Positions 5,522 through 25,303 of a stretch of 29,596 bases of DNA are shown here, one piece after another (position 1 is the stretch's first letter; each line of letters opens with the position of its first letter). The stretch lies in the UHGV virus genome UHGV-0100673, one strand, 5' to 3'. Source of the DNA: a virus. Both the position numbers and the translations under genes were made by a program. The notes beneath the pieces were generated by a model. It saw only the letters and a list, made by a program, of their open reading frames with translations. It did no database searches and was not told where the DNA came from.

Positions 5522-5538
5522 ATTACCTTTCAGGTAAT
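5522..5538. promoter_or_regulatory. Palindromic operator-like site ATTACC-TTTCA-GGTAAT
   Basis: Perfect 6-bp inverted arms with 5-bp spacer, read directly; same core as four other sites in the window. Confidence 0.5.
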
Positions 5539-5574
5539 TTGCAAAACGTGCTGGATAGCAAACAAATTATTTGA

Positions 5575-5594
5575 TACTGTATAAATATACAGTT
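5575..5594. promoter_or_regulatory. LexA (SOS) box
   Basis: TACTGTATAAATATACAGTT contains CTGT-N8-ACAG with an AT-rich spacer, a very close match to the LexA consensus, about 20 nt upstream of the ATG at 5614. Confidence 0.75.
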
Positions 5595-5613
5595 ATTGCA
5601 TGGAGAAGATAAG

Positions 5614-5871
5614 ATGCAGCAGTATCACTATCCACTGGAAGACGGATTTACCGAAAGGATTCACACGCCGGGAGGCGTCAGGTCACTGGTGGAGGGATCG
5701 CACTTGATGAAATTACTCCGGGATCTCGATAAGGATGGATTTAATGTCGATGGCCCACTTGCCGAACTGACTGCACTGATTAACTACGTCACCAGCTCAC
5801 AGATGTCTATGCAGGATCTGCAAACACATCTCGACTATTGTGCCGAACAATTACGAAAACAAACCAGATAA
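5614..5871 (+). CDS. Small SOS-controlled antirepressor-like protein (homologous to the C-terminal domain of the adjacent BRO-N protein)
   Basis: ATG 5614 with SD GGAG 6 nt upstream (the ORF track's 5596 start is TTG). GVRSLVEGSHLMKLLRDLDKDGFNVDGPLAELTALINYV...DLQTHLDY aligns by eye with SGVLGLTENSLLMNLLNQLQEDGHDVSGAAAELTTMFCYI...DIQTHAEY at the C-terminus of the 6187..6882 product. Confidence 0.65.
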   Translation: MQQYHYPLEDGFTERIHTPGGVRSLVEGSHLMKLLRDLDKDGFNVDGPLAELTALINYVTSSQMSMQDLQTHLDYCAEQLRKQTR

Positions 5872-5902
5872 GGTTTGCAATTACCAAATGGAGTGCTTAT
5901 AT

Positions 5903-5919
5903 TTACCTTTGCGGTAAAT
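5903..5919. promoter_or_regulatory. Palindromic operator-like site variant TTTACC-TTTGC-GGTAAA
   Basis: Same TTACC-N5-GGTAA core as the other four sites. Confidence 0.4.
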
Positions 5920-6009
5920 TTACATCGCACTCCTCTTGTGCCATAGTAATCGGGCACTGGCAAAATCCAGTGCCGGGATTGGCGTCCCGGATTACTAAAA
6001 GGTGCATTC

Positions 6010-6029
6010 ACCGCGCAAGCGGTTTTTTT
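6010..6029 (+). terminator. Short intrinsic terminator-like hairpin
   Basis: ACCGC-GCAA-GCGGT stem-loop followed by a 7-T run; downstream of the small gene and of a structured element at 5945..5996. Confidence 0.4.
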
Positions 6030-6186
6030 ATACGTATAGCACGGCCACATTCGTATTATGGTGGGCTGTGTGGGGGCACCGAAAGGTGCGCCGGGTCCTT
6101 TTAGCCGGTTACGCCAACCCTGCACAGCTCACCACCAACCGATTGGCGTCGGTAGTGGTGATTAACCAGACTAAAAGGTAACCACT

Positions 6187-6882
6187 ATGACAGCTACAAA
6201 AAGCACGTCCATTTTTTCTTTCGAATCCCAAGCCGATATACGAGTAATCGTCATTAATGGTGAGCCATGGTTTATCGCTTCAGATGTTTGTCGGGCTATA
6301 GGCATAGCAAACCATCGAGATGCTGTTCGAAAACTTGATGATGATGAGAAGGGCGTCGCTTCAACCGACACCCCTGGCGGTGAGCAAGAATCGATCATCA
6401 TCTCCGAGTCAGGCCTCTACACACTGATCCTCCGCTGCCGCGACGCAGTGACACCAGGCACTATCCCCTACCGCTTTCGTAAATGGGTTACAGGTGAGGT
6501 TCTTCCTCAGATCCGCTGCACCGGAAGTTACATTAAAAACTCGCTCCCGCAGGAAGAACGCATAAAGATGGTTGCCGACCAGGTAGCCAACGCCACAGCA
6601 TCAGCAGTGATGCAGGCGATGAAGATAGAGAACAAAACCTACAGTGCCCCACTGAAGCCCGGCTACCGCAGCCTGATTCATTCGCCGTCTGGTGTTCTCG
6701 GCCTGACGGAGAACTCACTGCTGATGAATCTGCTGAACCAGTTACAGGAAGACGGGCACGACGTATCGGGCGCGGCGGCGGAGCTGACCACCATGTTCTG
6801 CTACATCGTCGGTGTGAGCAAATGCCTGCGTGATATCCAGACGCACGCGGAGTACATCAACGACAAAGCAGGGTTCTTCTGA
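6187..6882 (+). CDS. BRO-N domain phage antirepressor
   Basis: N-terminal region ...IRVIVINGEPWFIASDVCRAIGI...ESGLYTLILRC...FRKWVTGEVLPQIR matches the BRO-N domain pattern; C-terminal about 60 aa homologous to the small upstream protein. Confidence 0.75.
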   Translation: MTATKSTSIFSFESQADIRVIVINGEPWFIASDVCRAIGIANHRDAVRKLDDDEKGVASTDTPGGEQESIIISESGLYTLILRCRDAVTPGTIPYRFRKWVTGEVLPQIRCTGSYIKNSLPQEERIKMVADQVANATASAVMQAMKIENKTYSAPLKPGYRSLIHSPSGVLGLTENSLLMNLLNQLQEDGHDVSGAAAELTTMFCYIVGVSKCLRDIQTHAEYINDKAGFF

Positions 6883-6953
6883 CGGGCGGCGGCACAGGGA
6901 TGTGCCTTTAAATAATTCTGTACAGATTGCAGACTGGGGGTGAATAGCGTACT

Positions 6954-6970
6954 ATTACCTTAAAGGTAAA
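6954..6970. promoter_or_regulatory. Palindromic operator-like site ATTACC-TTAAA-GGTAAA
   Basis: TTACC-N5-GGTAA core about 45 nt upstream of the ATG at 7012. Confidence 0.45.
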
Positions 6971-24362: not shown

Positions 24363-24376
24363 TTCAATGACTCCGG

Positions 24377-24583
24377 TTACTGACCAAGCAGCGTTTTACC
24401 GCTGGTATTAGCGGTTGATGTGTCGCCCTGAGAACCGGTAAGCAGCGTAGAACTACGACCAGCAGCAGCGCGACGGCGACGAGTTTCTTCGTCGCGGGCA
24501 TCAACAACGGCGGCATCCTGCTCCTGTGGTGCTGCCTGAACTTCTGGTGTTGCAGGCACTGATGGTGAGCTACCCATGCACAT
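24377..24583 (-). CDS. Small hypothetical protein upstream of portal
   Basis: 68-aa ORF with SD GGAG 7 nt before ATG 24583; Ala/Pro/Arg-rich. Confidence 0.35.
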   Translation of the reverse strand: MCMGSSPSVPATPEVQAAPQEQDAAVVDARDEETRRRRAAAGRSSTLLTGSQGDTSTANTSGKTLLGQ

Positions 24584-24672
24584 ATCAATGACTCCGTACG
24601 CAATTAAATTATTACCAATTTAACCACATATGATTTATTTATCGTAGATAGTTGACATTTAACGCAAGAATT

Positions 24673-24689
24673 ATTACCTTTCAGGTAAC
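24673..24689. promoter_or_regulatory. Palindromic operator-like site ATTACC-TTTCA-GGTAAC
   Basis: 15-mer TTACCTTTCAGGTAA identical to the site at 5523..5537; preceded by a TTGACA hexamer at 24653..24658. Confidence 0.5.
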
Positions 24690-25010
24690 CAAAGATTTCA
24701 TTCCGGTTACTAACCTGACTGGCTTGTCGTTAAATTGAACAGGTGGAGTGAGCTTTTATTTTGAGCAGTACGGCGTATGGCACATGCGCCGATAGCGGTC
24801 TGGATACGTTTAAGGTGCACCCTCCCTTGCTCGGGCAAACGAACCAGGTAGCCGGAATGTGCAAGTCGAGCGGTTTTATTCCGCGCACGGGGATTCACCA
24901 TCCCGGCGATTCGGTGTGACGCCTCGGAAGAGACGAGGGTACAACGATGAGAGCATTTATGGAGCCGCGACAAAGTGTGGCGCCTTAACAGGCTAAGTGC
25001 TCTCAGCGTT

Positions 25011-25087
25011 GTGGCATTAGCTCAGTTGGACAGAGCAACCGCCTTCTAAGCGGTTGGTCGCAGGTTCGAATCCTGCATGCCACGCCA
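25011..25087 (+). tRNA. tRNA-Arg (anticodon UCU)
   Basis: Hand-folded cloverleaf: acceptor stem GUGGCAU/AUGCCAC, D-arm GCUC-AGUUGGACA-GAGC, anticodon stem ACCGC/GCGGU with loop CUUCUAA, 5-nt variable loop, T-arm GCAGG-UUCGAAU-CCUGC, discriminator G and encoded CCA. Confidence 0.85.
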
Positions 25088-25130
25088 GAATCACGCCTAA
25101 GGACCGTGATGCCAGAAGTTCCAGGTGCTT

Positions 25131-25172
25131 GGCGGTGATGGTTTCCCTTGAAGGACTATCACCGCCCTTTTT
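25131..25172 (+). terminator. Hairpin with T-run downstream of the tRNA
   Basis: 9-bp stem GGCGGTGAT / ATCACCGCC around an 18-nt structured loop, followed by CTTTTT. Confidence 0.5.
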
Positions 25173-25250
25173 ACAGCAGGACGCCATTGCGATGACTTCA
25201 TGCTGTAAACCCGTACAGCCACGGAAGGCATAACTCATTGCTTCCAGTTC

Positions 25251-25273
25251 GCCCACTTCAGTGGGCTTTTTTT
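25251..25273 (+). terminator. Rho-independent terminator
   Basis: GCCCAC-TTCA-GTGGGC stem-loop followed by seven T. Confidence 0.7.
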
Positions 25274-25286
25274 CTAGTGACTACTG

Positions 25287-25303
25287 ATTACCTTATGGGT
25301 AAT
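25287..25303. promoter_or_regulatory. Palindromic operator-like site ATTACC-TTATG-GGTAAT overlapping a putative promoter
   Basis: Perfect 6-bp inverted arms; right arm overlaps a candidate -10 (TAATAT 25300..25305) with candidate -35 GTGACT at 25277..25282 (17-bp spacing); 30 nt upstream of ATG 25335. Confidence 0.5.

Follow-up and report, generated by a model that had tools for sequence, protein, structure and literature searches.

An immunity switch made up of a repressor, Rep, and an antirepressor, Ant, was reportedly described for SPC32H by Kim & Ryu in 2013 and by Kim et al. in 2016 (PDB 5D50, 5D4Z). SPC32H Rep is reported to bind palindromic DNA as a tetramer that is taken apart by tetrameric Ant (PMC9638917), and the domain through which it tetramerises is said to be folded like those of DNA-looping regulators (PMC9986798). 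Several Salmonella prophages have antirepressors under LexA control, and the SPC32H work of Kim and Ryu (2013) is among the studies cited for this (PMC7380047). In the E. coli phage ZX5, overexpression of the repressor and of a Bro-N protein altered the lysis-lysogeny balance, the Bro-N homologue ORF4 favouring the lytic cycle; the paper defines no operator (PMC9782041). In the RefSeq record of epsilon15 (NC_004775.2), seven ATTACC-N5-GGTAAT sites are labelled 'protein_bind, repressor, lysogeny', and the records of phiV10 and TL-2011b have no operators annotated. Here we analyse copies of the palindrome TTACC-N5-GGTAA in the virus genome UHGV-0100673, a stretch of 29,596 bp that we call the window. 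We propose, with a probability of roughly 0.88, that they serve as the operators of Rep, the immunity repressor encoded by the prophage itself, which is a helix-turn-helix protein with two domains and belongs to the epsilon15/SPC32H type.

The window belongs to a prophage of E. coli that BLAST places among the epsilon15-like podoviruses (genus Uetakevirus), alongside phiV10, TL-2011b, ZX5 and others. It is the reverse complement of the prophage at guaA in E. coli PK6, to which it is 99.996% identical over 24 kb and which has two insertion sequence (IS) elements not found in the window. Structural genes occupy the minus strand, while ant, isrK, C4, a Bro-N gene, a YafO-like cassette, tRNA-Arg(tct) and a 296-aa open reading frame (ORF) lie on the plus strand. 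The immunity region, with rep and cro, is located about 4 kb past the right end of the window.

Copies of the palindrome and their promoters in the window

The exact palindrome TTACCNNNNNGGTAA (TTACC-N5-GGTAA) occurs six times in the window, at 5523, 5903, 6955, 24674, 25288 and 28365 (spans in Table 1), and a one-mismatch copy, TAACCACCGTGGTAA at 28347-28361, abuts the last of these. In 100 dinucleotide-preserving shuffles the expectation for exact sites was 0.01 and the maximum 1, and when up to one mismatch is allowed the window holds seven matches against 0.47 expected. An earlier note on this DNA had listed five sites and considered them far too many for chance. All five are exact matches, although their spans had been quoted as 17 bp, with 5903..5919 off by one, and the exact site at 28365 and its one-mismatch neighbour had been overlooked. 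The 15-mer that two of the sites were said to share is TTACCTTTCAGGTAA, found at both 5523 and 24674. Also as described there, the structural block is free of the motif: a scan of the window yielded no copy with up to one mismatch between 6970 and 24673. Intergenic placement held as well, and for the enlarged set, since all six exact sites fall within the 8.1% of the window that is non-coding (P ~3e-7 by chance), on a gene map taken over from the near-identical PK6 prophage and with the short terS start, as in epsilon15 and TL-2011b, presumed for site 28365.

Pooling of sites across genomes gave 62 distinct sequences with the consensus aTTACC-ttWaa-GGTAAt, in which two half-sites of 5-6 bp stand one helical turn apart, the central base is A or T in 98% of cases, and the flanking positions prefer a and t. 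An apparent orientation bias, TTACCTT on the plus strand at five sites, was discarded because the pooled consensus is symmetric, with T at position 6 and A at position 10. The palindrome is not a LexA box (CTGT-N8-ACAG) either: both sequence and spacing differ, and true LexA boxes are separate elements, one at 5577-5592 and possibly another at 5504-5519.

The sites overlap sigma-70-like promoters. In 149 of 417 distinct contexts, the first base of the -10 hexamer has an offset of -5 or -4 relative to operator base 1; in the commonest layout the -10 ends on operator base 1, so that the operator spans about -7 to +8. Sites 5903 and 6955 of the window follow this layout, and at 5523, 24674, 25288 and 28365 the operator is in the spacer or covers the -10. 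Spacings between neighbouring operators peak at 17, 62/63 and 76 bp. Operators are found singly, abutting (17-18 bp) or paired at 62-63 bp, an arrangement that fits a multivalent (tetrameric) repressor.

Only the 5903 promoter was detected by a generic promoter scan; others required a custom scan with lower thresholds. Upstream of the isrK/C4/Bro-N unit, TTGCAA (5875-5880) and TATATT (5898-5903) are separated by 17 nt and the -10 ends on the first operator base; orthologous sites are present in phiV10, TL-2011b and Tyrion. A weaker promoter, TTGCAG-17-TACTAT (7/12 consensus matches), was recognised by eye at 6955, again ending on operator base 1, and the orthologue of this site is TL-2011b 33333. 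Between the divergent tail-fibre and ant genes, site 5523 appears by eye to occupy the minus-strand spacer between TTGCAA (5544-5539) and a weak -10 facing the tail-fibre gene; its epsilon15 orthologue (19895-19911) is annotated 'protein_bind repressor'. At 24674, TTGACA (24652-24657), a 17-nt spacer and TACCTT (24675-24680) form a plus-strand promoter directed toward tRNA-Arg. The TTGACA-like -35 (TTGACC in BUCT711) keeps a fixed spacing from this operator in 6/6 compared genomes, and the epsilon15 orthologue (2931-2947) is an annotated repressor site.

The promoter at 25288 consists of GTGACT (25277-25282), 17 nt and TAATAT (25300-25305), with the operator within its spacer and -10; at the equivalent place in BUCT711 the promoter is kept with a degenerate operator, CTACCATAACGGTAT. 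Among 77 close relatives from a portal-based search, which returned only 99% identical phages and was used for these two counts only, the 24674 site is found in 76 and the 25288 site in 3; the latter came with a rare cassette. The remaining pair lies upstream of terS. The epsilon15 orthologue of 28365 (12-27) is likewise an annotated repressor site, and the one-mismatch partner at 28347, including its mismatch, is kept in phiV10, Tyrion and epsilon15.

The palindrome across relatives and the Rep/Ant system

In the 41.4-kb PK6 prophage we counted 11 exact and 4 one-mismatch sites. Two sites (14982, 15030) and a degenerate one (about 14999) lie between rep and cro, and two at the leftward early promoter downstream of rep (14208, 14270). 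Further copies include one past the cro terminator, two upstream of the DUF1064 gene, the terS pair and one upstream of int, in addition to the five of the earlier note. In the part of the prophage outside the window, the palindrome precedes the early-left, early-right and replication-distal units. The genomes of phiV10, TL-2011b, epsilon15, SPC32H (10 exact copies), Tyrion and the Klebsiella phage BUCT711 hold 8-11 exact sites each at the same syntenic places. PK6 and six other genomes share two to three sites in the rep-cro interval and two to three at the leftward early promoter; in epsilon15 and SPC32H the three rep-cro sites are spaced 17 and 30 bp apart, which is the classical tripartite operator layout. 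Overall, the motif was found in phages of Escherichia, Salmonella, Klebsiella and Enterobacter.

The palindrome had been presented as a mark of accessory loci. This framing does not survive the comparison: copies also precede terS, stand in the tail-fibre promoter region, and serve the early and replication-distal units, while the 24674 site marks a junction of structural operon and accessory region and a one-mismatch copy lies at int. The impression stems from the limits of a single window.

Several lines of evidence connect the sites with Rep. Three of the seven labelled epsilon15 sites are the orthologues of window sites 28365, 24674 and 5523. The repressor of the PK6 prophage matches SPC32H Rep (PDB 5D50_A, E=4e-42), and the product of the window's ant gene matches SPC32H Ant (Table 1), with a near-consensus LexA box just upstream. 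Four features of an epsilon15/SPC32H-type system are present, namely the ATTACC-N5-GGTAAT core, clustering at rep-cro and at the leftward promoter, a LexA-controlled Ant and, through the PK6 gene outside the window, the cognate repressor. Two abutting copies (TTACC-N5-GGTAA-NN-TTACC-N5-GGTAA) occur in 109 contigs among 2.9 million in IMG/VR, and in 107 of them a homologue of the Rep N-terminal domain starts 53-93 bp away, cro not being scored separately in this count; in the other two the match lies at the end of the stored locus.

The core has outlasted considerable divergence of the repressor. In a covariation test of repressor and operator among heteroimmune relatives, it recurred with every Rep type (E. 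coli, Enterobacter, Klebsiella, Salmonella), at identities to phiV10 Rep of 42-78%, and two contigs whose Rep relatives retain 45-49% N-terminal identity still hold 6-7 dispersed copies. Among four Rep types the N-terminal domain is 53-54% identical, against 37-42% for the C-terminal domain, and the stretch NLVNRW is invariant; this better conservation of the N-terminal domain accounts for the single operator core found in phages whose repressors have diverged. The ZX5 repressor is 100% identical to that of phiV10 (tblastn). Pseudomonas phage PseuP_224, the only outgroup with a weak match to the Rep N-terminal domain, has no site, which proves little.

These observations support the suggestion that one sequence-specific DNA-binding protein stands behind the sites, the motif being present at rep-cro and at the leftward promoter in every relative examined, and they favour the prophage repressor, which had been offered as one of two candidates; most likely this is Rep, encoded outside the window. 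The regulator had also been taken to be a dimer. Sequence specificity stands, but a dimer is probably too simple, given that the solved homologue is described as a tetramer (PMC9638917).

According to the model, Rep would occupy the sites in a lysogen and block RNA polymerase at each unit, every site lying across the core of a sigma-70-like promoter. As transcription is closed by a terminator after nearly every unit and begins anew at a promoter with an operator, Rep is expected to silence directly the early, packaging and tail-fibre units as well as the counter-oriented cargo units: tRNA-Arg, the isrK/C4/Bro-N cassette, the YafO-like toxin cassette and the 296-aa ORF. Paired sites may allow cooperative or looped binding. 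Derepression would come about through removal of Rep by LexA-controlled Ant.

In its core and in its repressor family the system agrees with epsilon15, with syntenic sites ahead of terS and of gp3/portal and in the interval that separates ant from the tail-fibre gene. It differs in that epsilon15 Rep is only 42-43% identical overall to the E. coli Rep and in that epsilon15 is without the cargo sites of the window (isrK/C4/Bro-N, YafO-like cassette, 296-aa ORF). The SPC32H switch is matched here by Rep and Ant homologues and by a LexA box before ant, and SPC32H itself has motif copies at the same places.

More distant systems resemble this one in design. Phage P1 carries C1 operators, asymmetric 17-mers, dispersed over its genome, one of which, Op51, controls immI (c4 RNA, icd, ant). 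Here, too, one repressor would serve many scattered promoters, one of them driving a C4 antisense RNA and then an antirepressor gene, and immI resembles the isrK/C4/Bro-N arrangement behind its repressor-controlled promoter. The window operator, however, is symmetric and its repressor is of the HTH_3/SPC32H-Rep type, to which C1 is unrelated, so that we do not assign it to a P1 C1-type regulon; the analogy is one of design only. With lambda CI/Cro (OR1-3, OL1-3) the system shares two to three palindromic operators each at rep-cro and at the leftward promoter, the proposed promoter occlusion and, likely, cooperative multi-site binding. Lambda has two operator clusters only and controls its late genes indirectly, through antitermination, in contrast to the 11-15 sites spread over the genome here, and induction here is by an antirepressor rather than by RecA-stimulated cleavage. 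The gp71 stoperators of mycobacteriophages L5/Bxb1 are also scattered in large numbers through short intergenic spaces. Stoperators are asymmetric and orientation-dependent and block elongation inside operons, whereas the palindromes of the window have symmetry and lie across the -10/+1 of promoter-like sequences, and we rejected membership in this class.

Alternative readings of the sites

Several points weigh against assigning the sites to Rep. For the terS pair (28365/28347), neither the generic nor the custom scan found a convincing promoter, and several other window promoters are weak, with 7-9/12 consensus matches. Control is not strictly universal: the lysis-operon operator of epsilon15 (24704), of which phiV10, SPC32H and Tyrion have a one-mismatch version, is missing from the window. 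The rep gene lies outside the window, and its presence is deduced from the PK6 prophage. The repressor-site labels in the epsilon15 record may be experimental or predicted, and for SPC32H the identity of the experimentally used operator with the motif rests on the genome sequence and on secondary descriptions. Finally, the same sites could be bound by another protein of the immunity region, a Cro-like protein of 76 aa (PHROG 35 'transcriptional repressor') encoded divergently from rep. If this protein were their main or additional ligand, early and cargo promoters would be shut down during lytic growth. Its gene directly adjoins the rep-cro operators, and in lambdoid phages CI and Cro share operators. 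Yet the labels in the epsilon15 record give the sites to the repressor, the tandem motif accompanies the Rep N-terminal domain in the contig survey described above, and binding by the Cro-like protein would not exclude binding by Rep. We regard a role for this protein as a tentative possibility.

The remaining candidates fare worse against the same data. A host transcription factor was the other option raised in the earlier note, and half-sites 10 bp apart are typical of many bacterial regulators. The motif search of prophage and host proposed there now argues against it: 11 exact sites in the 41.4-kb prophage contrast with none in 208.6 kb of the PK6 chromosome (four 50-kb pieces and the 8.6 kb next to the prophage, a sample that takes in an unrelated lambdoid prophage), where one-mismatch copies occur at roughly the chance rate; from base composition, about 4-5 exact sites would arise by chance in a whole genome. 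As far as sampled, host DNA thus does not carry the motif at similar density, and the motif always travels with rep across phages of four host genera. To our knowledge, the palindrome matches no host-factor consensus, and we consider a host regulator scarcely credible. A phage activator that switches on middle or late units, such as the PHROG 536 regulator or a PerC-like protein, could account for sites before terS, the tail-fibre gene and other late units, and the PHROG 536 gene lies immediately upstream of the terS pair. The same sites, however, are found on the flanks of rep and cro and extend over the -10/+1 of promoters with a good -35, which is a repressing position, and the motif TATGTGGTT, placed where a -35 should be, is a better candidate for an activator site; an activator at the palindromes is therefore very unlikely. 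RNA-level hairpins, acting in leaders as terminators, RNase III sites or translational operators, would agree with the copies that overlap a ribosome-binding site (RBS), with the ends of the DUF1064/RuvC-upstream site and of the terS copy A2 2-3 nt before an ATG, and with the RNase III sites marked near some copies in the epsilon15 record. Against them, the stem has 5 bp and no T-run, folding of the 15-mers yields only -2.6 to -5.2 kcal/mol, and the other arm never compensates for the change in orthologous one-mismatch variants (TCACC, GTACC, GGTGA, GGTAT, GGTTA). Moreover, sites occur in both orientations relative to transcription, and many lie upstream of or across the -10, so that the full hairpin would not be transcribed. 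We find this highly improbable; the real terminators nearby are separate hairpins, and the palindrome does not qualify as an intrinsic terminator or structured RNA.

Neighbouring features and the reach of the proposed Rep control

Coordinates of the operators and neighbouring features are collected in Table 1.

Table 1. Operators, second-motif copies, LexA box and neighbouring genes in the window.
Feature	Position	Strand	Context or match
Operator class C, TTACCTTTCAGGTAA	5523..5537		Between divergent tail-fibre gene (-, start 5418) and ant (+, start 5614)
Operator class D, TTACCTTTGCGGTAA	5903..5917		Abuts -10 of + promoter reading into isrK, C4, Bro-N gene
Operator class E, TTACCTTAAAGGTAA	6955..6969		Upstream of + cassette 7012-8080
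Operator class B, TTACCTTTCAGGTAA	24674..24688		Boundary of gp3-portal structural operon (-) and variable accessory region (+, tRNA-Arg)
Operator class B', TTACCTTATGGGTAA	25288..25302		Inside promoter of 296-aa ORF 25335-26225 (+)
Operator class A1, TTACCGTTGTGGTAA	28365..28379		Upstream of terS (-), downstream of terminator 28399-28416
One-mismatch operator class A2, TAACCACCGTGGTAA	28347..28361		18 bp from A1 centre to centre; overlaps terS RBS and start codon
Second motif, TATGTGGTT	5483..5491	-	Upstream of tail-fibre gene
Second motif, TATGTGGTT	24622..24630	-	7 nt upstream of -10-like TAATAA, no -35; gp3-portal operon
LexA box, near-consensus, CTGTATAAATATACAG	5577..5592	+	Just upstream of ant; kept in epsilon15, phiV10, TL-2011b
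ant, small antirepressor	5614..5871	+	SPC32H antirepressor Ant, PDB 5D50 chain E (5D50_E) 'Anti-repressor protein', E=4.1e-47
isrK small RNA	5954-6029	+	Rfam RF01394, 77.6 bits, above gathering score
C4 antisense RNA	6054-6139	+	Rfam RF01695, 79.2 bits, above gathering score
Bro-N domain protein, second putative antirepressor	6187..6882	+	PF02498, E=2.3e-21; PHROG 'anti-repressor Ant'
Accessory cassette	7012..8080	+	108-aa ORF, YafO-like toxin 7325-7837, small membrane protein
tRNA-Arg, anticodon tct	25011..25087	+	About 320 nt downstream of promoter overlapped by operator 24674
296-aa ORF, phrog_13369	25335..26225	+	Downstream of operator 25288
PHROG 536 regulator gene	28466-28804		Directly upstream of terS operator pair

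In the PK6 prophage, ISKox3 and IS2 (42962-45661) are inserted at the equivalent of window positions 5581-5588, with an 8-bp overlap. This is inside the LexA box of ant, so that ant is cut off from its upstream control region in PK6, and the inducibility of this prophage may be altered. A second CTGT-N8-ACAG sequence, CTGTGAATACGAACAG at 5504-5519, abuts operator 5523; it is present in PK6 and not in phiV10 or TL-2011b, and may be a chance occurrence, as about 0.45 are expected per window.

The isrK and C4 RNAs lie in tandem in the leader between operator 5903 and the Bro-N gene, and a terminator-like hairpin is found within this leader at 6010-6023. Downstream of tRNA-Arg there are two terminator hairpins (25131-25166 and 25251-25266). 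The tRNA-Arg leader is long, and the equivalent region of epsilon15 has an annotated RNase III site; judged by its promoter, this phage tRNA would be under Rep control. Except for a sub-threshold YafO match, the 296-aa ORF and the cassette proteins received no Pfam or PADLOC assignment. In PK6, PGAP annotates terS as 27715-28425 (-) with a TTG start, which would place both operators and the hairpin 28399-28416 inside the gene. The ATG start used in epsilon15 and TL-2011b, here at 28349, is more plausible, because the longer version would enclose a strong terminator hairpin.

In the region 3140-3300 (-), upstream of the holin-like gene, the window retains a TTACC half-site only, together with a promoter-like AATATGGTT...TATGAT. 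The one-mismatch copy 57 bp upstream of int, TTACCTTAAAGGTAT (PK6 8716, epsilon15 26882, phiV10 26870), sits within a larger inverted repeat, TGACGGTA...TACCGTCA. As the same mismatch is kept in all genomes, this copy may be a weak operator or part of the attP architecture.

The second motif was also found, as (c)ATATGTGGTT, at PK6 17361 and at epsilon15 2990 and 24753, always in the direction of the structural genes. It stands 7 nt before TAATAA, TAATAG or TATGAT with no -35 element, and 10, 31-34 or 43 nt separate it from the Rep operator. The gp3-upstream block CATATGTGGTTAAATTGGTAATAATTTAA is near-identical in six genomes, with one variable base at its 5' end. From its position the motif is a candidate for an activator-dependent middle or late promoter.

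Individual examples place several mosaic junctions at or beside operators. Between 6955 and TL-2011b 33333 the promoter side is identical and the gene side unrelated; at 5903 the spacer and one flank are inverted in phiV10 (20497); and between PK6 17375 and epsilon15 35969 a shared operator is followed directly by an exchange of DUF1064 and RuvC genes. Just beyond the operator the break fraction is 6.4%, compared with 0.2-4.8% at other offsets, in data that are heavily redundant.

Control of this kind is already known and partly annotated, and no new kind of regulation is proposed. What is new is the operator map for the E. coli lineage and the finding that every counter-oriented cargo unit in the window has its own operator-bearing promoter. 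Beyond this, Rep might act as a genome-wide silencer rather than as a switch at two promoters, gathering the 11-15 dispersed operators, those of every counter-oriented cargo cassette included, into looped higher-order complexes via its looping-type tetramerisation domain, with the strictly conserved 62-63 bp operator pairs as the basic looped unit. We consider this extension rather unlikely; if it were true, the cargo genes would be induction-phase genes rather than lysogenic-conversion 'morons', and a common operator-promoter module might make it easier for cassettes to change places without losing their regulation.

For a prophage family that is common in E. coli, the analysis provides a concrete map of the operators; published work in E. 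coli had named the repressor and no operators. Phages of this family carry O-antigen-modifying genes and serve as O157 typing and detection phages, and the sites described here supply promoter-operator modules that are short, portable and open to tight repression. From the map we predict that the window's accessory genes would stay silent in the lysogen until antirepression driven by the SOS response turns them on, which changes how the function of these genes should be tested.

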